A DNA stretch of 64,000 nt from Candidatus Iainarchaeum sp. GTDB taxonomy: Archaea; Iainarchaeota; Iainarchaeia; Iainarchaeales; JACQJH01. The stretch lies in assembly GCA_016205145.1 (NCBI GenBank), contig JACQJH010000002.1, positions 489,696 through 553,695 on the forward strand. Reading direction: 5' to 3'. Below the pieces are notes generated by a model. It saw nothing but the letters and a program-made list of their open reading frames with translations. It did not search any database and was not told the origin of the DNA. The first letter of the stretch is position 1. Each line of letters begins with the position of its first letter. This document shows positions 2,095 through 16,566 of this stretch, piece after piece. The translations under genes and the position numbers were made by a program.

Positions 2095-3306
2095 CTAAAC
2101 AGGCTTTGCCCTGCCCGAAGCGACCAAAAATATCGCAGCGGACAGCGGAAGTTCCGTTTCAGCCTTGCGCATTTCCGCAAACTTTTCCCCTTTCAGGGAA
2201 AATTCCGGCGAAAAATCCACGAAAACCTTGGCGGGCTCGCGCCCGAAAACAACCGCGTCGGAGAAAGGGTCAAACTGTTTCAGCGCATCCAATGAAACTC
2301 TTTTCGCCTGGAAGCCCGTGCCGCCATGCAAAGTGTCGGGAACGCGCAGGATCTTGCTCTTGTCAAGCGAAGTCTGCCTGTCGACATTGAATGATTCGCA
2401 CAAAACCGTGAAATCGAAAATCTTTGGCCAGAAATCCTTTGTGTTCCTGCCCGAAGGCGAAACGAGGATGCCTTGCGAAAGCTTTTCAAGAAAATTGTCC
2501 CTTCCAGCCAAAAGTTCTTCGGCTTTTTTCTTGCTTATCCCGCCGATTGCCGCGACCTTTTCCGCGTTGCCCGCGCTGAAAAGGCTTTCAATGCCGGACA
2601 GGATTTTTTTCTGCCAGCCGAGGGCAATCTTCTTTTGCGGGCAATGGAATGCCTTGCCGATGCGCACAAATCCAAGTGCAGTGAGGTTGACGGAATGGCC
2701 AGTTAGATAGTCGAGCAGTTCTATGCGCCCGGCATGCGGCAAAGCGTTGATTTCCTCGCCGCGCAAATGCACGTGGTATCCGGCATTGCCCGAGAAGTTC
2801 ACGTCAAAGCCTGAAAACCCGAAGTCTTCCTCAAGCGCTTTGACAAGGCGAAAAACCTGGCTTTTGGTTTCGCCAAGGCATTCGTTGCAGAACATCTGCT
2901 TTACAGAGACAGGCGAACCGCAGGACGTGCAGTTCTCCACTTTTCCCGGGCCGCTGGAAAAACATTTCGGGCACAGCCAATAGTCATGGCGCTGCTTGCA
3001 GTCTGTCTGAATGTCGTCGGCGTCGAATTCATAGACGAGGTCGGCTGAAATGAAGCCTTTTGCTTCAATCGGCCTCGCCGCCGGCATTTTGTATTTTGCG
3101 CCCGAATAGGATACGAACAGCGGCACTTCTGAGCGGAGGAAAGCGTTGAATGCGTCATGGCTTGGAAATGCAAGGTGCCTCTGCGAAATCTTCAGGCCGA
3201 AAATGCCGCAGCCGAACTCCCTTTTCTCCGGTTCGGGCGGCTGGGAAACGAAATTTTTTTCGTAAAACTGCCTGAAATGCTGTTTCAGGAAATCCTCGGC
3301 ACGCAT
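2095..3306 (-). CDS. priS: DNA primase small (catalytic) subunit PriS
   Basis: 403 aa. Catalytic acidic motif (YEFDADD), a zinc-knuckle CPKC...CTSCG and the archaeo-eukaryotic primase fold signature; followed by priL. Confidence 0.85.
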   Translation of the reverse strand: MRAEDFLKQHFRQFYEKNFVSQPPEPEKREFGCGIFGLKISQRHLAFPSHDAFNAFLRSEVPLFVSYSGAKYKMPAARPIEAKGFISADLVYEFDADDIQTDCKQRHDYWLCPKCFSSGPGKVENCTSCGSPVSVKQMFCNECLGETKSQVFRLVKALEEDFGFSGFDVNFSGNAGYHVHLRGEEINALPHAGRIELLDYLTGHSVNLTALGFVRIGKAFHCPQKKIALGWQKKILSGIESLFSAGNAEKVAAIGGISKKKAEELLAGRDNFLEKLSQGILVSPSGRNTKDFWPKIFDFTVLCESFNVDRQTSLDKSKILRVPDTLHGGTGFQAKRVSLDALKQFDPFSDAVVFGREPAKVFVDFSPEFSLKGEKFAEMRKAETELPLSAAIFLVASGRAKPV

Positions 3307-3337: not shown

Positions 3338-3425
3338 AGGTGCCGGGCACCCAACACAAAGCAGATGGGTATTGCAATGGCAATACCCGTCGTCGAACCA
3401 GCCGGACGAAACCGGCTTCAGCCGC
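3338..3425 (+). repeat. interspersed structured repeat family, short copy
   Basis: AAAGCAGATGG, hairpin GGGTATTGCAATGGCAATACCC, then CGTCGTCGAACCAGCCGGACGAAACCGGCTT. Preceded by the palindrome GGTGCCGGGCACC. Confidence 0.6.
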
Positions 3426-3642
3426 GCTTTGAGCCTATTATGGACGCAGATGAAAGTATTGCCGCCGACAGCACAACAAAGTTCGCTTCGGGCGAGAAAC
3501 CCAGGAGCTTTGCCGCAATCGAGATTATCGCAAGGTTTATGCCGAATGAAACCAGTCCGACGACCAGAAGCACGAACGCAGTCAAAACCACAAACGCAAG
3601 AGTTCCGACGCCAAGAGAAGCCCAGAAGCCCATCAAAACCAC
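3418..3642 (-). CDS. small hypothetical membrane protein (2 TM helices)
   Basis: 74-aa ORF that is hydrophobic throughout; the opposite-strand ORFs look like translation noise. Confidence 0.35.
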   Translation of the reverse strand: MVLMGFWASLGVGTLAFVVLTAFVLLVVGLVSFGINLAIISIAAKLLGFSPEANFVVLSAAILSSASIIGSKRG

Positions 3643-3690: not shown

Positions 3691-4857
3691 TTAAACGCTG
3701 TTTTCCGTGCTTTTTGGAAGCGGGGTTGCCGCAGTGCCATCATTGGCTGCTTTTTCCACGCCATTGGCGTTGCCCGTGCCATCCGTGCCGGCCGGGGCTG
3801 GCGGGGCGTTTTTTTTGCCGGAATCCTTTTTCAGTTCGCGCTGGTAAAACGAGACGGGATGGGAAACATTGCAGTCTTTTCCTTTCGGGCAAAAGCCGTA
3901 TTCCCTGACTTTTTTGCACGCCGGCGCGGACATCTGCTTTCCTACAATCCTCTTGACCTGGTATGCGGTCATCTTGCGGCTGAAATTCGGGGTTTTCGAG
4001 TAAAGCTCGACTATGTCCTCTTCGGGCATGCCGATTGACGACAAGAAGGCGGCAATGAAAAACCTGCCCATGTGCGGAACGTTTTTCCCTTCCAGCAAAT
4101 CAGAGTAAAGCGATGCCATGCAGTCCGGAAAAAGGTTGGGGTCGATTTTGCCCGACAGCTTGAGCTCGAAATCGCGTTCGCGCAAAGAGTTGAGGTGCGA
4201 GGAAACCTGCGACGCAATGCGCTTGAACGCGTTCGGCACTGCCGGCTGTTGGCCGGAAACGGATTCGAAAACGTTCCAGTAAACCTTTTCCGCCAGGAAA
4301 TGGCAGAACCCATTCTCGTCGAAAAAAACCCTGCCATCGGAAACCTTCTGGTTGACAAGCTTGAGGCTTTCGTCCCTGAAGCCTATGGACAGAAAATCCG
4401 GCAATGCAACTGAAACGAAAAAATCGGGGGAATCGGAAAGCGATGCGCTTATGCCAAGTTCGCCTGCAAGCTCCTGCGATGCCTTGCCGCGGTCCGGCTC
4501 ATCCTGCAAATTCTTAAACGTGTTTTTTGCGGTCCACGAGGCGAACTTCTTGTCCGCCTGCCCGTTTTTCATCTGCCCGAGAATGATTTTGGCGGCCGGA
4601 AAAGCCATTATTTCGCGTTCAAGGATTTCCTCCGATGAAACGTGTTCCAGGGGCTGCTGCTTGTCCTTCCACGCGCTCACGATCATGAAGACCGCGCGCT
4701 CTATTACGGGCCTGTTCTCGGCGGTTTCGTCAAGCGAAACATTGCTGTCCTTCAGTATGCGCATTGCGGCTGAGGAAAAAGGGTATTTCTGCGCGAACAA
4801 AAGATCCTGCGAAACCGGCATACAGGGAAGAATGCCTGAAAAACAATAAATAACCAT
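3691..4857 (-). CDS. priL: DNA primase large subunit PriL
   Basis: 388 aa. The C-terminal cysteine cluster (PACKKVREYGFCPKGKDC) fits an Fe-S domain, and it is adjacent to priS. The start is uncertain, and an unusual low-complexity Ala/Gly/Thr/Asn-rich tail follows. Confidence 0.75.
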   Translation of the reverse strand: MVIYCFSGILPCMPVSQDLLFAQKYPFSSAAMRILKDSNVSLDETAENRPVIERAVFMIVSAWKDKQQPLEHVSSEEILEREIMAFPAAKIILGQMKNGQADKKFASWTAKNTFKNLQDEPDRGKASQELAGELGISASLSDSPDFFVSVALPDFLSIGFRDESLKLVNQKVSDGRVFFDENGFCHFLAEKVYWNVFESVSGQQPAVPNAFKRIASQVSSHLNSLRERDFELKLSGKIDPNLFPDCMASLYSDLLEGKNVPHMGRFFIAAFLSSIGMPEEDIVELYSKTPNFSRKMTAYQVKRIVGKQMSAPACKKVREYGFCPKGKDCNVSHPVSFYQRELKKDSGKKNAPPAPAGTDGTGNANGVEKAANDGTAATPLPKSTENSV

Positions 4858-4924
4858 CCCGGACGCTAAAAGCTTAAAAGCCGGCAGACGAAAATGCTTA
4901 TGGCCGAAAGGCGAAAACCTGAAC

Positions 4925-5287
4925 GTGGAAGAAATGCCAGCAAGAACAGAGAGAAACGGAAACAGAAACGGGCGGCCGGAAAAGCCAAAGCCGGCAAGAC
5001 TCGGATTTTTTTTGCGAAGGAAAGCGGTTTCCGCCGAAAGAAGACTTTCAGCACAGGTGGCCGATGTTCAACTGCTGGAAAAGCGACTTGCCGGGGAAGA
5101 AAACGACGACAAGCGCAACGCCCTGCAGGCAATGCTTGGCTTGCGCCGGAAACAAGCTGCTTCGGCAATCCGCAGGGAAATGCCCGCACTCGAAGAAATG
5201 GCGGGAAGGCTCGAAGGCCTGCAGTCGGAAGAAGCGGAGCGCATTGCGCAAAAAATCAGGCAAATCATTGAATTCGGGCAGAATTGA
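4925..5287 (+). CDS. hypothetical highly charged coiled-coil protein
   Basis: 120-aa ORF in the priL-PCNA intergenic space. The second half is a plausible charged helix (LEKRLAGEENDDKRNALQAMLGLRRKQ...). The start is uncertain and an alternative Lys/Arg-rich frame (4894..5271) exists. Confidence 0.3.
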   Translation: MEEMPARTERNGNRNGRPEKPKPARLGFFLRRKAVSAERRLSAQVADVQLLEKRLAGEENDDKRNALQAMLGLRRKQAASAIRREMPALEEMAGRLEGLQSEEAERIAQKIRQIIEFGQN

Positions 5288-5303
5288 AAACAAAAAAAAA
5301 CGG

Positions 5304-6029
5304 TCAGAGTATCATGTGCGCCAGGTAAAAGTTTATTTCGGAGTCGCCGATCGGATACGAGATTTTCATCGGCGAATCGGTCTTGAGCTCAAGCAGGATT
5401 TTTTTGTCCGCGTCGGCCTCGCGCACGATGTTCTGCAAAAAATTCAGGGAATACTTGCTTTGGGTGTCGGCCGAGCTTTTCACGGAAACGCTTTTCCCGT
5501 TCGACTGGTCGCTGCGCATAGTTCCCTGGCTGCCCTTCGCCTCGATTGAAAGCTTGCCTTTTTTCACGTTTATGACGGCTGCGCTGCCGAACAAGGCAGC
5601 GTCTTTCAGGACTTCCCTGAAAATGCGCGCATTGATCTCGATGTGCGAGTCGAAGCCCACCTGCGGAACCTTCGGCTCTTCCTCGGAAACGTCTATGAGC
5701 GGCAGGCTGAATTTTCTCACCAGGTCGCCTTCAAAGGTCAAAGCCATCTCGTTTTCCGTAAGGTCGAGAACCATCCTGTCGCCGGGCAGTGCGCGCAGCA
5801 TTATTTTGGACAGCTCGGAAATGTCGACTCCTGCAAAAGCCGGCTCGACAGCATACCTGTCAAAAATCTTTTTGTCAAGGAAAAGGTCGACCAGCACAAT
5901 CTGGCTTGGGTCGATTGCCCTGAACAAAACGCCCTTGTCGGAAAAATGGAAATTGCCCTCCGAAATGAACGATGAAATCGCCTGCACCGCCTTCTGCCAC
6001 GAATCAAGCTTTTTGAGTTCAATCGCCAT
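5304..6029 (-). CDS. pcn: DNA polymerase sliding clamp PCNA (paralog 1)
   Basis: 241 aa, with PCNA-family motifs (FRAIDPSQIVLVDL, ...VRKFSLPLIDVSEEE...) across a two-domain clamp of the right length. Confidence 0.85.
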   Translation of the reverse strand: MAIELKKLDSWQKAVQAISSFISEGNFHFSDKGVLFRAIDPSQIVLVDLFLDKKIFDRYAVEPAFAGVDISELSKIMLRALPGDRMVLDLTENEMALTFEGDLVRKFSLPLIDVSEEEPKVPQVGFDSHIEINARIFREVLKDAALFGSAAVINVKKGKLSIEAKGSQGTMRSDQSNGKSVSVKSSADTQSKYSLNFLQNIVREADADKKILLELKTDSPMKISYPIGDSEINFYLAHMIL

Positions 6030-6071
6030 TCAAGTCAGAGATAAGTAAAGCAAAATATTGTTTAAATTGTT

Positions 6072-6539
6072 TTGCTGGCAACCATCTGCATGAAATCAGG
6101 CGTTTTCGCGTTTTTTATGCTGATGCTGGCACTTTCGGCATGCGTTGCGCCCGCCCAAAACAAATCAACAGCCGCAGGCGCCTGCCTTGAAAACGGGAAA
6201 TGCATTGACATCAGGATTGCGGATTCCGCTCAGGAACGGGAGCAGGGCTTGATGTTCGAAAAAAGCCTGCCGGAAAGCGGAGGCATGCTGTTCGTTTTCG
6301 AAAACGAAGGCCCGCACGCTTTCTGGATGAAAAACACGCTGATTCCCCTTGACATCATCTGGCTTGACACAGAAGGCAAAATAGTTTTCATGAGAGAAAA
6401 CGCTTTGCCGTGCAGGGAAGAGCCATGTGAAACATTTTTCCCGGACGCAAACGCCAGGTTCGTTCTGGAAACCAATTCAGGCTTTGCGGAAAAAAACGGC
6501 CTGGAAAAAGGGCGGAAAATTTCAATCAGCATTGGCTGA
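6072..6539 (+). CDS. DUF192 family protein with lipoprotein-like signal peptide
   Basis: 155 aa. An N-terminal hydrophobic segment ends in LSAC, and a DUF192 core is present (GLMF...LPE..GMLFVF...WMKNTLIPLDIIWLD). Confidence 0.65.
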   Translation: MLATICMKSGVFAFFMLMLALSACVAPAQNKSTAAGACLENGKCIDIRIADSAQEREQGLMFEKSLPESGGMLFVFENEGPHAFWMKNTLIPLDIIWLDTEGKIVFMRENALPCREEPCETFFPDANARFVLETNSGFAEKNGLEKGRKISISIG

Positions 6540-7346
6540 GCCCTGCGCTTTCAGGCACGCGCCTATCGCGGTTGCGATTCCTGCGTTTTTAGGAAAAACC
6601 AGATTTTTGCTGTAATAGCCGGCAACGGTCTGCATGCGTTTCCTGAACCCTTTGACTTCAGGGGTTTTCCCGACAACGACAATTTCATCCAAGCCTGCCG
6701 CGCGGCTGGCAAAAATTATCGAGACCGCGTTCACTTCAGCAACCATCTTCACGAGCGCTGCCGCAGCGTCCTCTTTTTTGGATGATGAAAGCTTCGCAAA
6801 ATTCGAGCCTGTCGCGCCGACCGGAACAACGCCTATGCCTTTGCCCATGATGTCGCCGACTGACAAATCGATTTTTTGCGCTCTGCCTTTTGCCGCAAGC
6901 GCCTCCAATTCAAAAACGTTTTTGGCGCCAAGCAGAAGACTTGCGAGGCCGAGCAGCGTTCCGCCGCCAACTCCGGTGCCGCCAAAATGCCTTGACTTCC
7001 CGTTCCGCATTTCAACTATGCAGGTGCCCGTGCCGAGGCTTGCAACCAAACAGCTCTTTTTGCCCGCAAGGAACGCGCCGCCCAGGCCGATCGCATCGAT
7101 TTCGGAAACGTGCCTGACAGGAACGCCGAAAACCTTTTTGCCGTGCAATTGCATTGACCTTCCGCCGGTGACCGCAACCGCCCGTATTTTTTCAAACGGC
7201 ATGCCGAGCGATTTCAGGAATTTTTGCATGCCGCGCACGGGCATTGCAGGAAAACTCCACGAACGCACGATTTTTCGTTTGCCGAACAGCACTATGTCAG
7301 TCGTCGAAGCGCCGAAGTCAATTCCCAAGACAAATAGTTTGCCCAT
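6522..7346 (-). CDS. type II (Fumble-family) pantothenate kinase-like ASKHA kinase
   Basis: 274 aa. ASKHA phosphate motifs GIDFGASTTD, GTGTCIVE and GGGTLLGLASLL (Fumble GGGT-LGL signature); it clusters with panC and panB. Confidence 0.5.
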   Translation of the reverse strand: MGKLFVLGIDFGASTTDIVLFGKRKIVRSWSFPAMPVRGMQKFLKSLGMPFEKIRAVAVTGGRSMQLHGKKVFGVPVRHVSEIDAIGLGGAFLAGKKSCLVASLGTGTCIVEMRNGKSRHFGGTGVGGGTLLGLASLLLGAKNVFELEALAAKGRAQKIDLSVGDIMGKGIGVVPVGATGSNFAKLSSSKKEDAAAALVKMVAEVNAVSIIFASRAAGLDEIVVVGKTPEVKGFRKRMQTVAGYYSKNLVFPKNAGIATAIGACLKAQGSANAD

Positions 7347-7363
7347 TTATCAGTTTCAGCCCT

Positions 7364-8857
7364 TTACGCATTTTCCTGCACGAACTGCACCAGGAGCCTC
7401 ACGCCGAATCCCGTCGCCCCGACCCAGGAGTATTGTTTCGGCGCCTTTTCGTTCCACGCAGTTCCCGCAATGTCCAAATGCACCCACGGCGTTTCGCCGA
7501 CGAATTTTGAAAGGAAGCCCGATGAGACGATCATGTCCGCAAACATGCTTTTGCCCAGATTTCTTACATCCGCAACGTCGCTTTTCGTCTGCTCCTTGTA
7601 TTCGTCATACAACGGCATTCTCCAGACGCGCTCGAAAATCTCCTGGCCGGTTTCAAACATTTTTTCCGCGAACTTGTCGTTGTTCGAAACCATGCCCGCG
7701 ACAAAATCGTCGAAAGTGCCGATGCAGCTTCCCGTGAGGGTTGCCGCGTCAACAATGAGCTTGGGCTTGATTTTTTCCGACGTGAACGCAAGCGCGTCCG
7801 CGAGAATAAGCCTTCCCTCGGCGTCAGTGTCAGCCACTTCGACGGTTTTGCCGGAATAAGACTTGATTATGCTGCCCGGCTTGTAGGATTTCGCGCCGAC
7901 CGCGTTTTCGACTATCGGCAAAACCGCGACGACGTTCACTTTCGCCTTCAGCTCAGCCAGGGATTTCACCGCCGCAAACATTGTTGCCGCGCCGGCCATG
8001 TCAAGCTTCATGTCCTTCATGTCCCTTGTCTTTATGTCCAAGCCGCCTGTGTCGAATGTTACCCCTTTGCCGACCAGAGCAATTTTGTCCTTTTTTGACT
8101 TGTTGCCGTTGTATTCCAATATGAGCATTCTTGGCGGGAATTCCGCGCCCTTGCCCACTGCAAGAATGAGGTTGAAGCCCTGCTTTGCAAGCTGTTGCGC
8201 CGTGAGTTCCCTGCATGAAACCCTCGCCCTTTTCGCCAAAGCCTTTATCTGCCTTGAAAACGTTTCGGTGTTCTTCTGCCAGGGGCTCTCGTTGACCATG
8301 TCGCGCACAAGGCAGACGTTGCTGCACACTATCGCGGTTTCCTTCACCGCCCTTTGCGCGGCGGCAATGTCCCCGGACTTCAGGATGACGGTAAAGGTTT
8401 TCACGTTGGAGCGCTCCTTCGCATCCTCAAGCAGATATTTGTCGAAACTGTAATGGCCGAGAATGGCGCCTTCAGTGATTGCCTGCAGTTCCTTTCCCTT
8501 TCCCTCGCCGAAGCCCTCAAGCGGGAACGCAACGGACGGATGCTCTATGCCGAGGCTTCTGCATGCCCTTGCAACGATTGCCGAAGCCTTGCGCAGCTTT
8601 TCAAGCGACAGCTCCTTCCTCTTGCCGAGGCCGAGCAAAAAAACGTTTTTTATTTTAGGAAGCGGTGCATTCGGAATGAGAAAGGCCTGGCCGTCCTTTC
8701 CTTCAAAGCCCTTTTTCGGAAGCGCCGCCTTGAACCTTGAAAAAAAGCCGTTGCCGGATTTTTTGAGTTCCTTCAGCTTTTCCTCTGAAACAAAAATTGC
8801 AAGCAGTTCAGTTTCCGCTTTTTCAAAATCCCCGGACTTGACGCGAACCTCGACCAT
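7364..8857 (-). CDS. pepA: leucyl aminopeptidase (M17 family)
   Basis: 497 aa. M17 catalytic signature VADTDAEGRLILADAL and the conserved C-terminal domain. Confidence 0.85.
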   Translation of the reverse strand: MVEVRVKSGDFEKAETELLAIFVSEEKLKELKKSGNGFFSRFKAALPKKGFEGKDGQAFLIPNAPLPKIKNVFLLGLGKRKELSLEKLRKASAIVARACRSLGIEHPSVAFPLEGFGEGKGKELQAITEGAILGHYSFDKYLLEDAKERSNVKTFTVILKSGDIAAAQRAVKETAIVCSNVCLVRDMVNESPWQKNTETFSRQIKALAKRARVSCRELTAQQLAKQGFNLILAVGKGAEFPPRMLILEYNGNKSKKDKIALVGKGVTFDTGGLDIKTRDMKDMKLDMAGAATMFAAVKSLAELKAKVNVVAVLPIVENAVGAKSYKPGSIIKSYSGKTVEVADTDAEGRLILADALAFTSEKIKPKLIVDAATLTGSCIGTFDDFVAGMVSNNDKFAEKMFETGQEIFERVWRMPLYDEYKEQTKSDVADVRNLGKSMFADMIVSSGFLSKFVGETPWVHLDIAGTAWNEKAPKQYSWVGATGFGVRLLVQFVQENA

Positions 8858-8906
8858 CCAATACCACCTTCAAAAAAAGAAAGCCGCACATTTTTAAAAG
8901 CCAACA

Positions 8907-9758
8907 TCATGCGGGAACGGAAACGGCAAGGTTGTCTATGAGCCTTGTCTTTCCGATGCGGCACGCGCAAAGCAAAACAGCCCCGCCTCGGATTTCCTTC
9001 AGCTCCGACAAATCCTTGGCATCGCGCACGGCGAAATACTCGGGCTTTGCCAGCGGCTCTTTCCCAAAAAAGCCTTTTGCAAAACCTTCAACCTCTGCGG
9101 GGCTTTTTTCGCCCGCCAGAATTTTTTCCTTTCCAGCGTTGAGCGCGCGGAACAAAACAGTTGCCGCTTTCCTCTCCCGCGCATCCAGGCGCGCGTTCCT
9201 GCTCGAAAGTGCCAAACCGTCTTTTTCGCGCACTGTCGGGCACACGACAACCGTGACAGGCAGGCTATGCGCGCGGACCATTTCTTTGACAACCAAAAAC
9301 TGCTGATAATCCTTATGGCCGAAGTACGCCTTGCCCGGAGAAACAATTTCGAAAAGCCTTTTGACGACCGCGCACACGCCCGCAAAATGCCCCGGCCGGA
9401 ATTTTCCCTCAAGCGTTTCCGCAACGGCGGGCGGCTTTACATCGGCATTGGTGCCGTGCGGATAGATTTCCTTTTCGGTTGGCGCGAAAACAAAATCAAC
9501 TTTTTCCTTTTCCAGCAGGCCGAGGTCTCTTTGCAAATCGCGCGGATAATTTTTCAGATCGCTCTTGTCGTTGAACTGCATCGGATTCACAAAAATCGAC
9601 ACTACGCAAAAATCGTTTTCCTGCCGGCATTTGCGCACCAATGACAAATGGCCTTCGTGCAAGGCGCCCATTGTGGGAACGAAGCCGACGCTTTTTCCCG
9701 GCTCATTCAGACGGGCGGCAGCCGCACGCATTTCCTGCGCGGATTTTACGACCTGCAT
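8907..9758 (-). CDS. panC: pantoate--beta-alanine ligase (pantothenate synthetase), bacterial type
   Basis: 283 aa. HIGH-like motif PTMGALHEGHLSL and a KMSKS-like region, colinear with bacterial PanC. Confidence 0.85.
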   Translation of the reverse strand: MQVVKSAQEMRAAAARLNEPGKSVGFVPTMGALHEGHLSLVRKCRQENDFCVVSIFVNPMQFNDKSDLKNYPRDLQRDLGLLEKEKVDFVFAPTEKEIYPHGTNADVKPPAVAETLEGKFRPGHFAGVCAVVKRLFEIVSPGKAYFGHKDYQQFLVVKEMVRAHSLPVTVVVCPTVREKDGLALSSRNARLDARERKAATVLFRALNAGKEKILAGEKSPAEVEGFAKGFFGKEPLAKPEYFAVRDAKDLSELKEIRGGAVLLCACRIGKTRLIDNLAVSVPA

Positions 9759-9786
9759 GGAATAAAGCTTGCGGAAAAAGGATTTT

Positions 9787-10554
9787 TTAATAGCTGTATT
9801 TTTTGCTTGGAAATTTCCCGCTTTTTACCTGATTGCCGAATTTTTCCGCTGCGCCGGAAATCTTTCCCCCGAGGTTGTCGAACCGCTTCACGAATTTCGG
9901 CTGGAAATCCGGCAGCAGGCCGAGAATGTCGTGCAGCACCAAAACCTGTCCATCACAGTGCCTTCCCGCGCCGATGCCGATTGTCGGAATGGCAAGGCAG
10001 TTAGTGATTTTTTTTGCGAGGCCGGACGGAACGCATTCCAGAACAAGCGCGAAACAGCCTTCCCTTTCAAGGCAGAGCGCGTCCTGCATAATTTTTTCCG
10101 CTTCTTCGGCATTCCTGCCTTTCACGGAAAAGTTTTCCGCTGTCTGCGGAGTCAGGCCGAGATGGCCGATGACCGGAATGCCGGCATCGCGGATGGCTTT
10201 TGCTATGCCATCGGAAAAGCCTTCAATTTTCACGCAATGGCAGCCTGCTTCCGAGAATTTTTTCGCGTTCTCGCCTGCAAGGTTTGAGTTCGTGAAAGAG
10301 CCGAACGGCATGTCCCCGATCACAAAGGATTTTTTGCACGCCCTTGCGACAGCCGCGGAATGCCGGAGCATTGTTTCCATTGAAACCGTCGAGGTTTTCG
10401 GCTCGCCGTAAACCACGTTGTTCAGGGAATCTCCGACAAGCAGGGCGTCAACCTTCGCGTCGACAAGCCGTGCAAAGGCATGGTCGTAGCAGGCAAGCAC
10501 GGAGATTTTTTCGCCGGACTTCTTCATTTCGGCAAACTTTTCGGAAATGTGCAT
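9787..10554 (-). CDS. panB: 3-methyl-2-oxobutanoate hydroxymethyltransferase
   Basis: PanB signatures (GDMPFGS, GIGAG..CDGQVLV). The likely start is the Met at MHISEKF, 16 codons inside the listed ORF, which avoids overlapping PCNA paralog 2. Confidence 0.8.
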   Translation of the reverse strand: MHISEKFAEMKKSGEKISVLACYDHAFARLVDAKVDALLVGDSLNNVVYGEPKTSTVSMETMLRHSAAVARACKKSFVIGDMPFGSFTNSNLAGENAKKFSEAGCHCVKIEGFSDGIAKAIRDAGIPVIGHLGLTPQTAENFSVKGRNAEEAEKIMQDALCLEREGCFALVLECVPSGLAKKITNCLAIPTIGIGAGRHCDGQVLVLHDILGLLPDFQPKFVKRFDNLGGKISGAAEKFGNQVKSGKFPSKKYSY

Positions 10555-10598
10555 GAAAAGCTTGTGCTGGAACAATTTGAAAAAGCTATTTGTCCCGC

Positions 10599-11345
10599 TC
10601 ACTCTGATTCTATGCGCGGCGCAAGGAAATAGGTTATGTCGGCCTTGCCGACCTTGTAGTTGACCTGGATGGGCGCGTTTGTTTTGAGGAAAACCTTGAC
10701 TTCGGTGTCAGAGGAAGCGGTTTTGAGCATGTCGGAAAGGTAGTCCAACGGGAACATGCTTTTAGCCTCGTCTTTCACTTTCATTTCGGTTATCGCCTTG
10801 TCGTCCTTCTGGGTTTCGCTGTTCAGTTCGCCCTTGCTTGAATGCGCCCTGACAAAAAACTTTTTGTTCTCGATGCCCAACGAAACGTGCGTTGAAATGA
10901 GCGCGGAATCCTTGAGCGCGTCCTGCAGGACCGAAGCCTTCATTGAAAGTTCCGCGTCGAAGTCTATGCGCGGACTCGGCAATTCGGAAGCGGAAATGTC
11001 TATCAAAGGCATGGAAAATTTTCTCACGGAAGAGCCCTTGAACGTGACGCTCAGATAGTTCTTGTCGTCCTCCAATGCCAGGTGCAGTTCGTCGCCGGCC
11101 TTCGACCTGGACATTATCTGGCCCAGGTAATCGAGGTCCAGGCCGAGCTTGGTTTTGCCGTCCAAATCGAATTTTTTGAAGGAATCCTTTTTGAGCGAGA
11201 AGTCGACCATTGAAATCTGGCTTGGGTCGGTCGCCCTCAATGACAAACCATTGGCGTCGAAGATGAATTCGGCCTCGTCGATCAGGACCGCGATTGAGTC
11301 GATGCATTTCTTGAAATCGTCGGCCTTTTCGAGCACTACGTCCAT
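10599..11345 (-). CDS. pcn: DNA polymerase sliding clamp PCNA (paralog 2)
   Basis: 248 aa. PCNA motifs (LRATDPSQISMVDF, VRKFSMPLIDISASE); only about 30% identical to paralog 1. Confidence 0.8.
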   Translation of the reverse strand: MDVVLEKADDFKKCIDSIAVLIDEAEFIFDANGLSLRATDPSQISMVDFSLKKDSFKKFDLDGKTKLGLDLDYLGQIMSRSKAGDELHLALEDDKNYLSVTFKGSSVRKFSMPLIDISASELPSPRIDFDAELSMKASVLQDALKDSALISTHVSLGIENKKFFVRAHSSKGELNSETQKDDKAITEMKVKDEAKSMFPLDYLSDMLKTASSDTEVKVFLKTNAPIQVNYKVGKADITYFLAPRIESE

Positions 11346-11541: not shown

Positions 11542-12315
11542 TCAGCAAATCAGGTCGTAGTCCGCCGGCAGCCTTCCGGTCGAAGCGAGGCCGAGCAGGT
11601 TGTCGAAAATCCAGAGCTTTGCGCAGCCGAGCACAGGGATCTGGAAGATTGCCTTGCCCTGCACTTGAGAGGCGTTGACCGGATAGAGCGTGATGCATGC
11701 CTGCTGTGAAACGCCGTTCACGATTTTGCCGCAGTCCGCGTCAAGAGTGTAATTCTGCTCGCTGTCGCCTTTTGTCAGGAGAAACGTTCCATCATTTGCA
11801 GCGAGTTTTGCCACGACGCGGTGGATTATCGGCCTGCCTGACGGGACAGCCGTGTAAACGACAATCGACCCGGTCTTTTCAACCGGAATTGTTTTGCCGT
11901 CCTTGAAAACGATTTTTTTCGCCTGCGGAATGCCATTCTCCATTTCAAACCTCAGCGACGCGAAATCGGAAAAAGGCGTGTTCGAAAGGCTTTGGCTTGG
12001 CATGGAAACTTCCGTTGCCTTGATGCCGTCCGGTCCGGCGCCGGCAAGCATTATGATGTCGCCGCGATGGTACAACGGTTTCATGGAGCCGGAAACGACT
12101 ATCATGAAAGGCGATTGCGTCTGCAGGATCATGCCCGCAATAGTGTATGCGAGCCAAGCGAAAACGAATGCGGAAACGATGTAAACTATTGTCGAGATTG
12201 CCGCGTTGTTTTTCGGGTTGACTGCCGGCATGACAAAGAGGTCGACGTAGTGGAACGGATCGAGCCATTTCAGCTTCTGCAGGATTGCATGGAATGGGCT
12301 TTGCTTGGCCGGCAT
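11542..12315 (-). CDS. signal peptidase I (archaeal/Sec11 type, S26 family)
   Basis: 257 aa. An N-terminal TM anchor is followed by the catalytic Ser motif VVSGSMKPLYHRGDII. Confidence 0.8.
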   Translation of the reverse strand: MPAKQSPFHAILQKLKWLDPFHYVDLFVMPAVNPKNNAAISTIVYIVSAFVFAWLAYTIAGMILQTQSPFMIVVSGSMKPLYHRGDIIMLAGAGPDGIKATEVSMPSQSLSNTPFSDFASLRFEMENGIPQAKKIVFKDGKTIPVEKTGSIVVYTAVPSGRPIIHRVVAKLAANDGTFLLTKGDSEQNYTLDADCGKIVNGVSQQACITLYPVNASQVQGKAIFQIPVLGCAKLWIFDNLLGLASTGRLPADYDLIC

Positions 12316-12341
12316 TTTTTCACGTCGGGCAGCCGGAAAGG

Positions 12342-12614
12342 CTACTTCGCCTTCTTTATTTCTTTCTTGAATTCGTCAAGCTTTTCGTCGACCCTTTTCA
12401 GGGCGTCGGAAAGCGCCTTTTTCGCCTGCTTGCCTTCCGTCTTCACAATGAACCTGCAGTCGTGGTCCATTGGATGATTGAGGGAATACGCCGCAAAGGA
12501 CACTTTCTCGTCTTCCAGTAGGGCTTCCCTCAGGAGATTGGGGAAAGTGTGCCTTTCGCCCTTGATTATGAATTCGGCAGAATTGTCCGAAGAATTCAGC
12601 ACTTCAAGTTCCAT
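12342..12614 (-). CDS. rpoL: DNA-directed RNA polymerase subunit L (Rpb11 homolog)
   Basis: 90 aa. RpoL signature (GERHTFPNLLREALLEDEKVSFAAYSLNHP); adjacent to csl4, as in many archaea. Confidence 0.8.
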   Translation of the reverse strand: MELEVLNSSDNSAEFIIKGERHTFPNLLREALLEDEKVSFAAYSLNHPMDHDCRFIVKTEGKQAKKALSDALKRVDEKLDEFKKEIKKAK

Positions 12615-12624
12615 TTATCGCACC

Positions 12625-13191
12625 TCATTTCAAAATATAATCTGAAGAAATTTTCCGCTGCTGCGTTGAGCCGCATGACAGGCATTTCAGGCCCTGGCCG
12701 AAAAGATGCAGCGGCTGCCTGCATTCCGTGCAGTAAGCCTTTATCACGCCCAGTGAATCGTCATTCGTGCTCACGTCGATCGCGAAAGGCGAGACCATTT
12801 CGGCTTTCCCCTTGACAAGGTCGCCTATCCTGAAAAAGTCTTTCAGGCTTTTCACGTATTCGCGCGCTACCATCCTGACCGGAATCATTGCAACGCCGAT
12901 GTGAACTGCCTTCTTTTTGCCGTCCTTTTCAGCCGAAATGATGTCAATCAGCACGGATGAGTCCTTGACAAGCCTGACTTTGCCGTAAACTATCGAGCCC
13001 CTGTCAAGCAATGCAACTTCGCGCTTTTTTTCGACGTTGACTTCCTTGAACCTTTGGTCAAACGAGACAAGGCCGATGGAATTGGACAGGATTTCGCCCT
13101 CGCATTCAAAGACGTTGCTGCCGGGAACGAATTCCTCGGCCGTCGACACGGCTTCGCCCGGCACGACGGGCTTTTGAGCATGTTTTTGCAT
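12625..13191 (-). CDS. csl4: exosome complex RNA-binding subunit Csl4
   Basis: S1 domain plus a C-terminal Zn-ribbon (CTECRQPLHLFGQGLKCLSCG). The start is probably the Met at MQKHAQKP, 23 codons inside the listed ORF. Confidence 0.7.
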   Translation of the reverse strand: MQKHAQKPVVPGEAVSTAEEFVPGSNVFECEGEILSNSIGLVSFDQRFKEVNVEKKREVALLDRGSIVYGKVRLVKDSSVLIDIISAEKDGKKKAVHIGVAMIPVRMVAREYVKSLKDFFRIGDLVKGKAEMVSPFAIDVSTNDDSLGVIKAYCTECRQPLHLFGQGLKCLSCGSTQQRKISSDYILK

Positions 13192-13293
13192 TGTATAACC
13201 CCAAAAATGGCGTTTTTGCGTTTTTCGGCCTGACCAAAAAAAACAGCTGAAAAACCGCAAACCGCAGAGAAAACCATTAAAACTGGTTAATAC

Positions 13294-13300
13294 TTTATAG
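13294..13300 (+). promoter_or_regulatory. archaeal TATA-like box for the SpoIIM-like gene
   Basis: TTTATAG lies about 28 bp upstream of ATG 13328. Confidence 0.35.
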
Positions 13301-13327
13301 AAATGGTAAGGAATTTAAAGGAACGGG

Positions 13328-14224
13328 TTGCCCTTGGTTTTGGAATCACTGATAGACACGGCCGCGGCAAAACGGCACCCTTTGGCCATTTTCCTGCTCG
13401 CCCTGGCCCTTTCCTCCGCGGCTTTCTGGATGGCATTTTTCACTTTCCCGGACTCGGCGAGCATACTGGCAATAGCATTCATCACCATAGCATTCGTGCC
13501 CATAATCCACTCCATCCTGGCTGAAACCGAGGAAGAGGAAGCGTTGGTGCCAAGCTGGTCGGTCGGCTTCCTGAGAAGGCATTTCGACGTCATCAAGATT
13601 TACGCCTGGCTTTTCCTCGGCGTTGTCGTAAGCTATTCGTTCTGGTTCGTGATCCTTCCAGGCGACGTGCACGCATCATTCTTCCAGGTCCAGGAAAAGG
13701 AGCTTGGGAAAATCACCACCATGAAGTCCACGCTTTCCGGAAACGCAAGCGGCGTGAAAAGCGTTGCCGAAAAGTGCGGCAGGGAATTCAGCTGCTGGTT
13801 CAACGTCATTTTCGTGAACAATGCGACAGTCCTGTTCTGGGCCGTGCTGTTCTCATTTGCAATGGGCGCCGGCGCGATTTTCCTGATAAGCTGGAACGCA
13901 TCAATAATCGGAGTTGTCATCGGCCGTGACATAATGGCGTTGTCATCGGCTTATTCGAATCTGGGCGAATACAGCCTTGCCGCGGCATTCCTGCACGGCC
14001 TGTTCAATGCAATTGGCTTCATTCCGCACGGCTTGCCCGAGATAACGGGCTATTTTTTGGGCGCAATCGCCGGCGGCATAATCAGCGCCGCGATTTCCAA
14101 GAAAAAGTTCCGGACCCACGAATTTGAAATAGTCGCAAAGGACGCCGCAGTGCTGGTGATGGCCGGAATACTGCTGCTGCTTCTCGGCGCCGCAATAGAG
14201 GCAAGCATAATAGCGGCTGTTTAG
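13328..14224 (+). CDS. SpoIIM-like membrane protein (DUF95)
   Basis: 298 aa, multi-TM. Conserved C-terminal motif LFNAIGFIPHGLPEITGYFLGAIAGG, typical of the stage II sporulation protein M family. Confidence 0.7.
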   Translation: MPLVLESLIDTAAAKRHPLAIFLLALALSSAAFWMAFFTFPDSASILAIAFITIAFVPIIHSILAETEEEEALVPSWSVGFLRRHFDVIKIYAWLFLGVVVSYSFWFVILPGDVHASFFQVQEKELGKITTMKSTLSGNASGVKSVAEKCGREFSCWFNVIFVNNATVLFWAVLFSFAMGAGAIFLISWNASIIGVVIGRDIMALSSAYSNLGEYSLAAAFLHGLFNAIGFIPHGLPEITGYFLGAIAGGIISAAISKKKFRTHEFEIVAKDAAVLVMAGILLLLLGAAIEASIIAAV

Positions 14225-14263
14225 TCTTGCTAAAAAAAAAGATGCAACGCACGTTTTGCAGCA

Positions 14264-15250
14264 TCAGGCATTCGCGTTTTCCAAAGCCATTTTTTTGAGC
14301 TTTGCCTCAACTGCTGAATCCACGGCTTTCTCAAAGGTTTTCTGGAACGGCGCAATCATCTGCTCGATGTCCTTTTCCCCCGCGGTTGAAGCGCCAATCT
14401 TGTCTGAAATGGAGTTGGCAATCCTGCTCAGCTCAAGCGGCAGGACAAATTTCGTGCTCTGGCCCCTTGAAAGCTCTTCAAGCGCCTTGATGTAGTAATA
14501 CGCGACCGTCTTGTCTGAAAGCTCCTTTGCCGCGGCATTGACTGCGCTGATTTCTTCCCTGTGGGCCTCGGCTTTCTGGATGCGCGCCAGTTTCTCCTGT
14601 TCCGCTGCCTTGAAGGCGTTGGTTGCGGCGAGGATTTCCTGCGGAATGTCGACGTCCTCGATTTCGACTTTCACTATCGATATGCCCCAGTCCTTTGATA
14701 TTTCCTCGACCTCGGATTTCAGGGCGCGGTTTATTTCCTCGATTTTTGAAACGACTTCGGGGACTTCCATGTCACCTATGACGTCACGCGTCGCTCCGAT
14801 GACATTCGCAACAACCGCTTCCTCGAAATTCTTGATGTTCACCACAGAGCTTACAACGCTCCCGTCATCCCTGCCCACATTCAGGAAGATTGCCTCCTTG
14901 ACCTTGAGCTCGATGTTGCCTTTTGTTATGACCTCGTACTTGGGCGTGAAAAGCGTTTTCGTGCGCAGGTCGACAATGACAAAGCTTTCAATGAATGGAA
15001 TGACAAAAGTCCAGCCCCTTCCCACCCGGTTCACTTTTCCGAAGCGGAAGATGACGGCGCGCTGGTAGTCCACGAGCAGCAGAAGCACCGGATACTTTGT
15101 GACCGCGAAAAGGAAAACTCCCAGGACAATTATCCACGGCAGGCTTGCCATTGCCGCGTCAAAGTTGACCATGAGCCAGACCGCGGCAAGAAGGAATGCC
15201 GCGAAAGCCCCTGCAATGATGCCGGATTTTACGCTTTTGCCCTCAACCAT
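14264..15250 (-). CDS. SPFH/band-7 (stomatin/prohibitin-like) membrane protein
   Basis: 328 aa. An N-terminal TM segment, then the band-7 domain (YQRAVIFRFGKV...), then a coiled-coil tail. Confidence 0.75.
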   Translation of the reverse strand: MVEGKSVKSGIIAGAFAAFLLAAVWLMVNFDAAMASLPWIIVLGVFLFAVTKYPVLLLLVDYQRAVIFRFGKVNRVGRGWTFVIPFIESFVIVDLRTKTLFTPKYEVITKGNIELKVKEAIFLNVGRDDGSVVSSVVNIKNFEEAVVANVIGATRDVIGDMEVPEVVSKIEEINRALKSEVEEISKDWGISIVKVEIEDVDIPQEILAATNAFKAAEQEKLARIQKAEAHREEISAVNAAAKELSDKTVAYYYIKALEELSRGQSTKFVLPLELSRIANSISDKIGASTAGEKDIEQMIAPFQKTFEKAVDSAVEAKLKKMALENANA

Positions 15251-15290
15251 GCCAATCAGCCGATACGGTTAATCAGTTAATACAGTATAC

Positions 15291-15298
15291 TTTATATA
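15291..15298 (+). promoter_or_regulatory. archaeal TATA box for the DUF373 gene
   Basis: TTTATATA lies about 30 bp upstream of ATG 15328, and the region just upstream of the TATA is purine-rich (BRE-like). Confidence 0.45.
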
Positions 15299-15327
15299 TT
15301 TCATGCAAAAATTTATTAATAAGCGCG

Positions 15328-16566
15328 TTGGCTTTTTGTGATAGCATGGCTGAAGAAAAAATCCTCGTCATCTGCGTTGACCGCGACGACGACCTTGGAA
15401 GGAAAACCGGGATACAGGGGCCGGTCATTGGCAGGGACGCAAACATCAAGGCCGCGACAAGGCTCATTCTCAAGGACCCCGAAGAAAACGATTCCAACAC
15501 AATGTTTGCGGCCGTGAAAAAATTCGACGAGGTAAGGAAATCAGCCGCTGCATGCGAGGTGGTGACGCTCACGGGCTACGGCAAGGCCGGCTTCAAGTCC
15601 GACAGGATTGTGGCGCAGCAGCTTGACGCCGTGCTCGAAAAATTCCCGGCCAACGGAATAGTGCTTGTAACCGACGGCGCCGAAGACGACCAGGTCATTC
15701 CCATACTGCAGGGCAGGGCAAGAATCATTTCAAAGGAAACAGTCATCATAAAGCAGGCGCAGGCAGTCGAATCAACGTTTTACACGATAAAAGAGGCGCT
15801 GAAAGACCCTTTCATTGCAAGGATTGCATTCGGAATTCCCGGACTGCTGTTATTGCTTTTCGGCCTGCTCGGCAACCTCAGCTTCCAGGTCATAGCATTC
15901 ATCGGCGGAACATATCTGCTGGTGAAAGGCTTCGGCATCGAGGAATGGGCCATAAGGGGATTCCACAGCGTCACTTCCTCGATTTCCGCGCAGAGAATCT
16001 CCTATCCGCTTTACCTTTCCGTGATTTTCATTCTCGGCTTCGGCGGAATGACCGCTTTCAACAAGTTCAACGAGCTTTCGGGCATAGAGCTTGTTGCAAG
16101 GGCAGTGATCACGGCGCAGTCAACATATCTTTTCATAGCGATTTCCGCTTTGCTCATTGTCGCGGCGAAAAGCGTCGACCTCATCCACCTCAAAAAGGCG
16201 CAGCACCTGCGCAAAATGCTTTTGTACGCGACCTCAACGCTTCTGGCGTGGTTCATACTCGACTCCGCAACACTGGTGGTGTTGGGCAGGGCCGACCTCA
16301 ACTGGTTCCTGTTCAGCGTGGGCTTCAGCATGTTCCTGCTGCTGCTTGCATTCAAGCTCTCCGAGATAATGGAAGTCAACTCGAAAGTGACGAGGCTGCT
16401 CGTCGGCCTGTCTGTTTACGCGAACGACGGAAGGTGGCTGGGCAAGGTAGAAAACGTCGACCGCGAAAAGCAGGAGATACTGTTCAAGGACAACGCGTCA
16501 AAGAAAAGCGTTTCCCTGAAAAAAAAGGAATTCGAAATAACCAAGGGCAGGATCCTGATAACCTGA
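15328..16566 (+). CDS. DUF373 family membrane protein
   Basis: 412 aa. N-terminal signature ILVICVDRDDDLGRK, a multi-TM core and a C-terminal soluble barrel-like domain. A TATA box at about 15291-15298 lies upstream. Confidence 0.7.
   Translation: MAFCDSMAEEKILVICVDRDDDLGRKTGIQGPVIGRDANIKAATRLILKDPEENDSNTMFAAVKKFDEVRKSAAACEVVTLTGYGKAGFKSDRIVAQQLDAVLEKFPANGIVLVTDGAEDDQVIPILQGRARIISKETVIIKQAQAVESTFYTIKEALKDPFIARIAFGIPGLLLLLFGLLGNLSFQVIAFIGGTYLLVKGFGIEEWAIRGFHSVTSSISAQRISYPLYLSVIFILGFGGMTAFNKFNELSGIELVARAVITAQSTYLFIAISALLIVAAKSVDLIHLKKAQHLRKMLLYATSTLLAWFILDSATLVVLGRADLNWFLFSVGFSMFLLLLAFKLSEIMEVNSKVTRLLVGLSVYANDGRWLGKVENVDREKQEILFKDNASKKSVSLKKKEFEITKGRILIT

Follow-up and report, generated by a model that had tools for sequence, protein, structure and literature searches.

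Why should archaea with genomes of about 1.2 Mb (1.24 Mb in the complete AR10 genome) keep two sliding-clamp genes, and what are genes for coenzyme A (CoA) synthesis doing between them? The question is raised by a 64-kb chromosomal segment, hereafter the window, to which all coordinates refer, from the class Iainarchaeia ('Ca. Diapherotrites', DPANN). The window encodes two homologs of proliferating cell nuclear antigen (PCNA), both on the minus strand: (i) PCNA-A (5304-6029), a diverged paralog of 241 residues with the C-terminus ...YLAHMIL-COOH, and (ii) PCNA-B (10599-11345), a canonical paralog of 248 residues with the C-terminus ...FLAPRIESE. The original prediction, made from this DNA alone, had placed both genes exactly, as full-length open reading frames (ORFs), and the motifs that it quoted are found in the pair (FRAIDPSQIVLVD / LRATDPSQISMVD; VRKFSLPLID / VRKFSMPLID). 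The account developed here, which we regard as probably correct, is that an ancient tandem duplication inside a replication supercluster gave rise to two specialised clamps, and that the spacer between the clamp genes holds variable cargo.

Two sliding clamps with different docking sites

Both proteins comprise the two PCNA domains, with Pfam E-values for PCNA_N and PCNA_C of 2e-10 and 4.6e-08 in PCNA-A and of 5.8e-15 and 3e-09 in PCNA-B. They align with each other over their full length at 33% identity (80/245; BLASTP E-value 1e-48; profile-profile E-value 5.8e-55), in keeping with the roughly 30% claimed for them beforehand. PCNA-B matches Pyrococcus furiosus PCNA (PDB code 1GE8) over its full length with 153 bits and scores 119.1 bits against the family model TIGR00590 (cut-off 99.1 bits), whereas PCNA-A, with 97.4 bits, stays 1.7 bits short of the cut-off. 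This shortfall may explain the label 'hypothetical protein' that PCNA-A bears in several NCBI records; the protein can be overlooked in some annotations, and the pair could confuse single-copy marker sets.

The structures of both proteins were predicted as monomers with AlphaFold2 (AF2). The two models display the same beta-alpha-beta topology and the same order of strands and helices, with a predicted local distance difference test score (pLDDT) of 90.9 for PCNA-A and 92.2 for PCNA-B, and a predicted template modelling score (pTM) of 0.87 each. The PCNA-A model contains four helices, and its superposition on Thermococcus PCNA gives a template modelling (TM) score of 0.93, the same for PDB codes 3LX1 and 3LX2, and a root-mean-square deviation of 1.8 Å (Foldseek). 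In the AF2 models the inter-domain connector is an unstructured linker of normal length, comprising residues 111-127 in PCNA-A and 114-130 in PCNA-B, and the connector loops of both paralogs align without gaps with those of P. furiosus and human PCNA.

The functional positions, mapped from the reference PCNAs of P. furiosus (PDB code 1GE8) and human (PDB code 1AXC), disclose a common framework with family-specific substitutions. At the trimer interface, either family shows 100% conservation of the residues equivalent to P. furiosus R82, R109 and D147, and the strand R-x-F-S-x-P-L-I-D is identical in the two proteins; the equivalent of D143 is E in PCNA-A (100%) and D in PCNA-B (64%), and that of K84 is L or M in PCNA-A and K in PCNA-B. 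The four inner helices carry a mean of 5.3 Lys and Arg residues in PCNA-A and 3.0 in PCNA-B, the corresponding values being 5 for P. furiosus and 7 for human PCNA. The equivalents of K77, R149 and K217 are basic in PCNA-A, and those of R149 and K217 in PCNA-B, the human K77 position being Lys in the former and Gln in the latter. The hydrophobic pocket positions, equivalent to M40, V45, L47 and P234, are conservatively retained in PCNA-A.

The docking site is where the two families part most tellingly. In fifteen columns of the alignment, PCNA-A and PCNA-B each conserve a residue of their own to at least 85%, and six of the 15 correspond to human T206, A208, Y211, P253, K254 and E256, which we take to be the Q-pocket and the C-terminal tail that grip the peptide of a PCNA-interacting protein (PIP). 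The equivalents of human A208, Y211, P253, K254 and E256 are S, F, H, M and L-COOH in PCNA-A, and P, Y, P, R and E in PCNA-B. The canonical PIP-pocket tail, L-A-P-[KR]-[IV]-[ED], is present in PCNA-B and not in PCNA-A: the tail LAPR[IVL][ED] closes 119 of 120 PCNA-B homologs and all nearby outgroups, and the C-terminus LAHM[IL][LI] closes 114 of 120 PCNA-A homologs and is also found in the deep A-like representatives. In the PCNA-A of the window, H238 and M239 are invariant in the family and the chain ends in I-L-COOH. As read from these residues, PCNA-A is a PCNA whose docking site has departed from the canonical form. With the change focused on the docking site and the body of the clamp intact, the two clamps appear to partition the PIP clients between them; the altered Q-pocket and C-terminal tail provide a clean sequence signature that can be tested with peptides.

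Conservation across the class

The presence of two PCNAs, noted in the original prediction from this DNA alone, is not confined to one genome but is class-wide and syntenic. A scan with the A-family alignment, covering one genome per GTDB species, detects an A-type PCNA in at least 144 species, among them Ca. Iainarchaeum andersonii, Ca. Forterrea and AR10, whose genome is complete (CP010424). Orthologs of either paralog number in the hundreds, at 53-66% identity, those of PCNA-B in Iainarchaeia showing 58-66%, and the named PCNA homologs belong mostly to Diapherotrites/Iainarchaeum or to metagenome-assembled genomes (MAGs) labelled plainly as 'archaeon', with one Micrarchaeota label.

The proteins of the window were mapped on the best 80 loci of the scan (L-numbers designate loci). 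In 58 of these, PCNA-A is preceded by PCNA-B in the same orientation; of the other 22, 18 offer under 5 kb of sequence upstream, and only four lack PCNA-B although they extend at least 8 kb in that direction. The distance from PCNA-B to PCNA-A varies continuously from 57 bp to 7.9 kb, with values of 57-99 bp in seven species. Around the pair a common gene order is kept, running DUF373 - Band7 - SpoIIM - Csl4 - RpoL - SigPep - B - [gap] - A - PriL - [gap] - PriS - Gins51 - S27e - aIF2alpha, and the Csl4-RpoL-SigPep string precedes PCNA-B in nearly all relatives. PCNA-A adjoins priL in this core position in 73 loci across the class, with a median gap of 85 bp; the gap measures at most 100 bp in 40 of the 73, and several pairs overlap by 4 nt. 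Even the deep lineage L005, whose PCNA-A is 41% identical to that of the window, shows the same B-cargo-A-PriL layout, and the related lineage L006 has a single PCNA, in the B position and with the canonical tail LAPRVD; the PCNA cluster to which it belongs includes the NCBI proteins HNW05415.1 and HRS42978.1.

In the window, the spacer between PCNA-A and priL (4858-5303) is purine-rich and unusually long compared with its relatives; the ORFs that it contains, including a charged one of 120 residues on the plus strand (4925-5287), have no counterpart in the related loci. A further side observation concerns six loci, L027, L037, L039, L072, L011 and L023, which display a clear Iainarchaeial PCNA-B/PCNA-A/primase synteny under foreign record names ('Falkowbacteria bacterium', 'Chloroflexi/Chloroflexota bacterium', 'Thaumarchaeota archaeon' and 'Micrarchaeota archaeon'); these contigs are probably mis-binned or mislabelled.

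Origin of the pair

In a neighbour-joining (NJ) bootstrap tree of 160 sequences, the A clade, which includes three deep representatives, and the B clade each receive 100% support. When scored with the A-family profile, the co-resident B proteins reach 189-227 bits and outscore 145 of the 149 other PCNAs in the comparison set, which were picked for their similarity to B, the four exceptions being A-like; with the B-family profile, many outside PCNAs outscore PCNA-A. Such asymmetric scores fit PCNA-A as a fast-diverging copy of a B-like ancestor, as do the B position and the canonical tail of the lone PCNA of L006, and the gap of 57-99 bp in seven species fits a tandem duplication. On this sequence evidence, PCNA-A is most likely a diverged in-paralog of PCNA-B. 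The two genes had been proposed to be old paralogs, or else differently sourced, rather than products of a recent duplication. Their age stands; a different source is made unlikely by the resident B proteins, which are the best non-A matches of the A profile, and by a search of 2.9 million viral contigs that returned zero A-type PCNAs.

A crenarchaeal orthology was also considered, after a single-sequence search of the PDB had related PCNA-A to Sso PCNA2 and PCNA-B to PCNA3. It was rejected, the signal being gone in the profile search, where the A profile gives 165-172 bits for Thermococcales PCNA and 110 bits for Sso PCNA2.

In the scenario that we propose, one tandem duplication would have occurred inside the PCNA-primase-GINS-S27e-aIF2alpha supercluster, no later than in the common ancestor of the class. 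PCNA-B would have retained the canonical sequence, closing the Csl4-RpoL-signal peptidase-PCNA-B string. PCNA-A would have diverged early and then been frozen, with the whole clamp architecture kept, and would lead a tight PCNA-A-priL unit.

One mixed ring or two clamps

Two clamps of this kind would divide the PIP-motif partners, most likely as distinct A3 and B3 rings, with RFC as the loader of each. PCNA-B would serve the canonical clients, and PCNA-A a subset that recognises the hydrophobic His-Met-Ile-Leu tail, possibly linked to primase. The alternative that survives best is a single heteromeric ring (A2B or AB2) in which each subunit type presents a different docking site, a possibility that we consider rather doubtful, although several points speak in its favour.

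The first of these is genomic. Both genes are co-retained in essentially all members of the class and often lie 57-99 bp apart on one strand, an arrangement compatible with stoichiometric co-expression; yet in more than half of the species the two genes stand 1-8 kb apart, with unrelated cargo between them that is often on the opposite strand, so that co-transcription is not required and strict co-expression is not maintained, which leans towards homotrimers. The second is evolutionary: in the 55 genomes with both paralogs, the two families change at equal rates, with a mean pairwise p-distance of 0.427 for A and 0.427 for B, and the A and B distances correlate with r = 0.75. The third is structural, the identity of the R-x-F-S-x-P-L-I-D strand and of the R82, R109 and D147 equivalents making cross-pairing sterically plausible. 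Against this, a threefold ring of two subunit types needs one subunit with both homo and hetero contacts, so that homotrimers would be possible too. There is, moreover, the precedent of Sulfolobus (cited in PMC3914693); the Iainarchaeial proteins nevertheless show no specific similarity to the crenarchaeal subunits (172 bits for Thermococcales against 110 bits for Sso PCNA2).

Covariation within PCNA-B bears on the same question. Its residues K82 and D142, equivalent to P. furiosus K84 and D143, have been lost together in at least 3-4 separate lineages, a paired loss that suggests a B:B contact, and A135 does not track it in three lineages. That D143 and D147 belong to the interface agrees with the presence of the monomeric mutants 1IZ5 and 3A2F among the Foldseek matches. 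Taken together, these patterns tilt slightly towards separate homotrimers and away from a mixed ring. The more general proposal, that Iainarchaeia have a two-subunit clamp independent of that of Crenarchaeota, either as a mixed A/B ring or as a second clamp whose invariant His-Met-Ile-Leu C-terminus reads a non-canonical PIP motif on one particular client (for example primase, whose large-subunit gene follows that of PCNA-A), is put forward tentatively and with less than even expectation; if true, clamp subfunctionalisation would have arisen twice in archaea, independently.

An inter-paralog covariation of A135, B82 and B142 was examined as a possible interface signal and discarded, given that it maps to a single clade and represents one event; only the B82-B142 pair recurs. 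The clade in question (L044-L065, Forterrea-like) shows on one branch the joint change of A135 from R to a non-basic residue, of B82 from K to Q and of B142 from D to S or N, and several of its members have the tightest B-A spacing (57-99 bp). The triple change is a single event and statistically uninterpretable, and the clade is one in which A:B contacts are worth seeking.

The spacer between the clamp genes

The B/A junction is the most variable of the cluster, with a median length of 1.07 kb; in 32 of 62 loci it is longer than 1 kb. The PriL/PriS interval forms a second variable slot, exceeding 1 kb in 15 of the 62, and PriS and Gins51 are separated by a median of 0 bp. In L001, the PriL/PriS slot (11780-18199 in the numbering of that locus) contains genes for a cation ATPase, an Na/Ca exchanger, a mechanosensitive channel and CorA.

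A Pfam census of 123 ORFs from the B/A gap finds rpiB to be the commonest cargo, present in 16 loci and on the opposite strand wherever mapped. The remaining cargo comprises (i) ion channels, Na/Ca exchangers, HAD hydrolases, ABC transporters and cation-efflux proteins, (ii) isochorismatase, flavin reductase, DsbA and radical-SAM proteins, and (iii) in a few loci only, PanB, PanC and Fumble proteins. In a tree of concatenated PCNA-A, PCNA-B and PriL, the pan-bearing loci that it includes fall with the window in one weakly supported clade of 16 leaves, the only one in which the module occupies the spacer, and outside this clade the B/A gap holds rpiB, other cargo or nearly nothing.

The simplest reading is that the B/A spacer marks the boundary between two transcription units, where insertions would be harmless, and would accordingly be free to take up lineage-specific cargo. 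The CoA genes are cargo at a replication-gene locus, as had been suggested, and the unrelated cargo found in other lineages leaves no evidence for a functional link between CoA synthesis and replication.

The pantothenate module

In the window, the B/A gap contains four minus-strand genes and one on the plus strand. Reading away from PCNA-B, these are (i) panB (9787-10554, minus), encoding ketopantoate hydroxymethyltransferase (Pfam Pantoate_transf, E-value 7.3e-91; TIGR00222, 261.9 against a cut-off of 207.55); (ii) panC (8907-9758, minus), encoding pantoate-beta-alanine ligase (Pfam Pantoate_ligase, E-value 2.4e-102; TIGR00018, 314.1 against 212.75, end to end), the protein including PTMGALHEGHLSL; (iii) pepA (7364-8857, minus), encoding an M17 leucyl aminopeptidase (Pfam Peptidase_M17, E-value 4e-112, plus the N-terminal domain); (iv) a panK candidate (6522-7346, minus), encoding a divergent type-II protein of the Fumble family with 274 residues (Pfam Fumble, E-value 2.3e-18); and (v) a DUF192 gene (6072-6539, plus; Pfam DUF192, E-value 1.3e-33), with a probable start at 6090 and a call of 149 residues in L090. 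Read from the ATG at 10554, PanB has 255 residues, as it does in the gene call for the independent assembly L089; with the other possible start, a GTG at 10602, the gene would overlap PCNA-B by 4 nt. The order panK-pepA-panC-panB on one strand had been recognised correctly, but the list was incomplete, the opposite-strand DUF192 gene having been overlooked. This gene is divergent from PCNA-A and interrupts any read-through from panK to PCNA-A.

The same module occurs at this spot in relatives: coaBC-panB-panC-panK in L016 and L020, and panB-panC-panK in L012, L017, L080 and L087. Reduced forms are found as well, with panK only in L003, L010 and L041, and likewise in L069, where the contig ends just upstream, and with panB only in L037; the pan-bearing clade also has members with no module genes. 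The panK orthologs adjoin PCNA-A in L003, L010, L012, L016, L017, L020, L041, L069, L080 and L087. The panK candidate of the window aligns over residues 6-268 of 274 with the type II PanK model NF009842, scoring 187.6 against a cut-off of 234, and gives 44 bits with human PanK3 and 39 bits with the type II PanK of S. aureus. The conserved linkage to panB, panC and coaBC supports a role of this Fumble-like protein as a putative pantothenate kinase.

PanC is of the bacterial type, as had been stated, its TIGR00018 score identifying it as the bacterial/eukaryotic pantothenate synthetase (PS). PanB, by contrast, does not mark the bacterial route, as the original prediction had assumed: archaea that use pantoate kinase and phosphopantothenate synthetase (PoK/PPS) need ketopantoate hydroxymethyltransferase too, and only PanC and PanK are diagnostic (PMC6650551, PMC7883664). 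PanC from the window is 100% identical to a protein encoded on a 637-kb contig of an NCBI MAG named 'Candidatus Diapherotrites archaeon', and the other named homologs, at 47-55% identity, are all bacterial (Anaerolineae/Chloroflexota, Nitrospirae, Thermoflexus and others); a further neighbour, which bears no taxon name, lies in a plainly bacterial panB-panE-panC-coaX context with fmt. In the tree, the window protein groups with an 85%-identical sequence and then with P0243 of L087 (54% identity; 62% bootstrap), a locus with the order panB-panC-panK-PCNA-A. As its nearest kin sit in a module locus, the module appears to have been inherited within the clade rather than inserted in the genome of the window, and an old bacterial origin of PanC is supported by these affinities. 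The bacterial neighbour pairs its PanC with a type-III kinase, and Iainarchaeia pair theirs with a type-II-like one, which hints at piecemeal assembly.

The claim of a horizontally acquired module therefore holds in part: the transfer of PanC is real but old, and insertion in this particular genome is countered by the same module in six other loci. A recent, genome-specific insertion, or bacterial contamination joined to the contig by mis-assembly, could draw on the exclusively bacterial identity of the named PanC neighbours at 47-55% identity and on the presence of pepA and DUF192 in the gap only in the lineage of the window. It is nonetheless quite improbable in view of (i) panB-panC-panK standing between the two PCNAs in six other species, with coaBC first in L016 and L020; (ii) the closest PanC beyond the 85%-identical one coming from the module locus L087; (iii) a GC content that stays even, at 0.52-0.53, over the PCNA/pan junctions; (iv) the lack of flanking repeats; and (v) the reproduction of the gene order and of every junction, at about 100% identity, in two independent assemblies (Logan SRR12113385 and SRR12113383), which shows that the arrangement is not an assembly chimera.

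We propose instead that at least the PanC of the module would have come from Bacteria long ago, that the module would use the bacterial reaction order (PanB, PanC and a type-II PanK, with CoaBC in relatives), and that pepA and DUF192 would be later, lineage-specific additions. In all 80 related loci, pepA is missing from the inter-PCNA gap, and DUF192 was not found at the other loci. The position of pepA between panC and panK is peculiar, the enzyme having no obvious role in pantothenate or CoA synthesis. Among the 40 ORFs of the 64-kb window scanned against Pfam, there is no PoK/PPS, no ketopantoate reductase and no source of beta-alanine. States with de novo synthesis (coaBC-panB-panC-panK), with salvage only (panK) and with no gene alternate among close relatives, a pattern that bears on the dependence of DPANN archaea on hosts.

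Integrity of PCNA-A and weight of the evidence

Could PCNA-A be a degenerating duplicate, or one that is no clamp at all and has no function on DNA? The loss of the canonical A-P-[KR] tail residues and family-model scores lower than those of PCNA-B are what such a pseudo-clamp would show. The claim that both proteins are full-length clamps was accordingly checked for loss of the connector loop or of the PIP pocket, and both the loop and the hydrophobic pocket are present in PCNA-A. Its ORF is intact in 144 species; an alignment of 32 sequences has 35 invariant and 36 nearly invariant columns; its rate of change equals that of PCNA-B; and the steady within-genome identity of A and B, 27-41% in the 55 genomes with both, argues against gene conversion and against relaxed constraint. 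The confident prediction of a full PCNA fold with its connector loop, inner helices more basic than those of PCNA-B and the preserved core interface residues point the same way, and make a pseudo-clamp very improbable.

Least credible of all is that PCNA-A is a 'shell' copy from a virus, a plasmid or a distant lineage that serves an element and not the chromosome, for despite its greater divergence, its score just below the TIGR00590 cut-off and the usual ascription of extra non-crenarchaeal PCNAs to mobile elements (PMC3914693), the gene occupies the same core chromosomal spot beside priL in 73 loci, evolves at the rate of PCNA-B, has the resident B proteins as its nearest relatives outside the A family, finds no A-type match among the viral contigs and lies in DNA of uniform GC content, with no integrase among the window ORFs near either PCNA, nothing resembling a mobile element flanking them and no att-like repeats around the pair, where the repeat search returned only a 37-nt remnant of inter-PCNA similarity at RKFSxPLID.

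The duplication of an ancestral clamp gene, followed by specialisation of the two products and by variable cargo in their spacer, remains the account that we prefer, and several observations tell against parts of it. Regarding the origin, NJ support for joining A with B or with any outgroup is at most 7%, and the choice of the 149 comparison PCNAs by similarity to B biases the profile test. Regarding function, few events underlie the B82/B142 covariation, neither a partner protein nor a variant PIP motif came to light, and the gap of 446 bp between PCNA-A and priL in the window (4858-5303) makes co-transcription here uncertain. Regarding the cargo, the 16-leaf clade that unites the pan-bearing loci with the window has a bootstrap value of 38%, and the monophyly of Iainarchaeial PanC is unsupported (49.5% and 7.5% bootstrap), so that PanC may have been acquired more than once or replaced.

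Comparison with known systems

The closest parallel is the PCNA1/2/3 heterotrimer of Sulfolobus (PDB codes 2HII, 2IX2 and 2NTI), likewise composed of vertically inherited paralogs that were born by duplication and fixed lineage-wide, and whose sequence differences also point to a partitioning of PIP partners. The Iainarchaeial pair differs in being independent in origin, with no specific affinity to PCNA1, 2 or 3 in the NJ and profile analyses, in comprising two paralogs and not three, in its tandem or near-tandem arrangement, where the Sulfolobus PCNA genes are dispersed, and in the unique LAHMIL-COOH tail of PCNA-A.

Thermococcus kodakarensis also encodes two full-length PCNAs, PCNA1 (TK0535) and PCNA2 (TK0582), which each form homotrimers and which are the best structural matches of PCNA-A. 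TK0582 lies in the integrated viral element TKV3 and is dispensable and strain-specific (PMC3914693), whereas PCNA-A is a class-wide core gene beside priL that displays no signs of a mobile element. In general, core PCNA genes in several copies have been considered a crenarchaeal trait, additional copies in other archaea being ascribed to mobile elements, and reconstructions place a single PCNA in the last archaeal common ancestor, in Euryarchaeota and in other phyla (PMC3914693). A replisome survey of 2025 that includes Iainarchaeia describes PCNA as 'mostly single-copied' and does not discuss the pair in its text (PMC12680538). No description of the clamp pair was found in the literature on PCNA in Diapherotrites, Iainarchaeota or DPANN, a search whose scope lay outside the supplement of PMC12680538, which may tabulate copy numbers.

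The clamp pair is a lineage-fixed set of PCNA paralogs that belongs neither to the crenarchaeal family nor to the mobile-element class and that has its own signature tail. The finding is solid and broad but extends an established theme, and the division of function between the clamps is what we infer from it. As a further class-wide set, independent of the crenarchaeal one and found in DPANN archaea with small genomes, the pair would offer a natural experiment in the division of clients by a homotrimeric clamp.

The surroundings of the pair recall the supercluster PCNA-PriS-Gins15 / L44E-S27E-aIF2alpha-Nop10 (PPsG-LSIN) and the PCNA-PriL adjacency of Euryarchaeota (Berthon et al. 2008, PMC2643942). 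In the window, PCNA-A-priL-priS-gins51-S27e-aIF2alpha run on one strand in the same manner; the Iainarchaeial cluster differs in its duplicated PCNA and in two variable slots (B/A and PriL/PriS) with metabolic and transport cargo.

Most archaea use PoK/PPS (PMC6650551, PMC7883664). The bacterial/eukaryotic order with PS and PanK has been described in archaea for the PanK of Picrophilus torridus and Thermoplasmatales, with Poribacteria, which have PoK/PPS, as the mirror case (PMC6650551, PMC7883664). The window resembles these archaea in encoding PanC and a putative pantothenate kinase, an order explained by horizontal transfer, and differs from Picrophilus in that the kinase is a divergent type-II (Fumble) protein and not a type-I-like PanK, PanC is also present and the genes are patchy within one DPANN class. 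The literature on pantothenate in Diapherotrites yielded no description of the module, which would be one more archaeal case of the bacterial PS/PanK order, and Iainarchaeia would join the short list of archaea that have it.

Neighbouring genes and genome setting

Upstream of PCNA-B, the minus strand carries the genes of the conserved string, namely (i) Csl4 (12625-13260), whose relatives carry the Pfam label ECR1_N; (ii) Rpo11/L (12342-12614), whose relatives carry the label RNA_pol_L; and (iii) an archaeal signal-peptidase-like gene (11542-12315; TIGR02228, 62.5 against a cut-off of 51.85). Downstream of PCNA-A, its neighbour priL (3691-4857, minus) encodes the primase large subunit (Pfam DNA_primase_lrg, E-value 3.5e-20), and priS (2095-3306, minus) the small subunit, with a weak match to Pfam DNA_primase_S (E-value 6.1e-05) and tblastn identities of 38-51% to the PF01896 genes of relatives. 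The cluster is completed on the minus strand by Gins51 (1489-2046), S27e (1257-1499) and aIF2-alpha (422-1189), each identified by tblastn to the corresponding genes of L001 and L003 (PF22090 Gins51_C, PF01667 S27e and PF07541 eIF2-alpha).

The interval between priL and priS contains a conserved membrane ORF of 74 residues (3418-3642, minus) with two predicted hydrophobic helices. It is kept at 47-55% identity in L010, L012, L016 and L017 and also, in the reverse orientation, in L080, and it probably encodes a genuine small membrane protein.

Elsewhere the window is ordinary archaeal chromosome, with genes for, among others, PheRS, ThrRS, Cdc6/Orc1, Cdc48, topoisomerase IA and one RFC small subunit; a tRNA scan and Rfam at the gathering threshold, over the whole 64 kb, returned zero tRNA genes and zero Rfam families. 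In the stretch 33241-34904, the Cdc6/Orc1 gene (33241-34416, minus) and about 490 bp of intergenic DNA precede an EndoIV-like gene, and this intergenic DNA, at some 22 kb from the PCNA/primase cluster, represents a candidate origin of replication. The lowest GC content of the window (0.43 against about 0.52) is found at 46-48 kb, where a gene for an N6/N4 DNA methyltransferase (46958-47992; Pfam N6_N4_Mtase, E-value 3e-43) is located, and this stretch may represent a foreign restriction-modification or mobile island.

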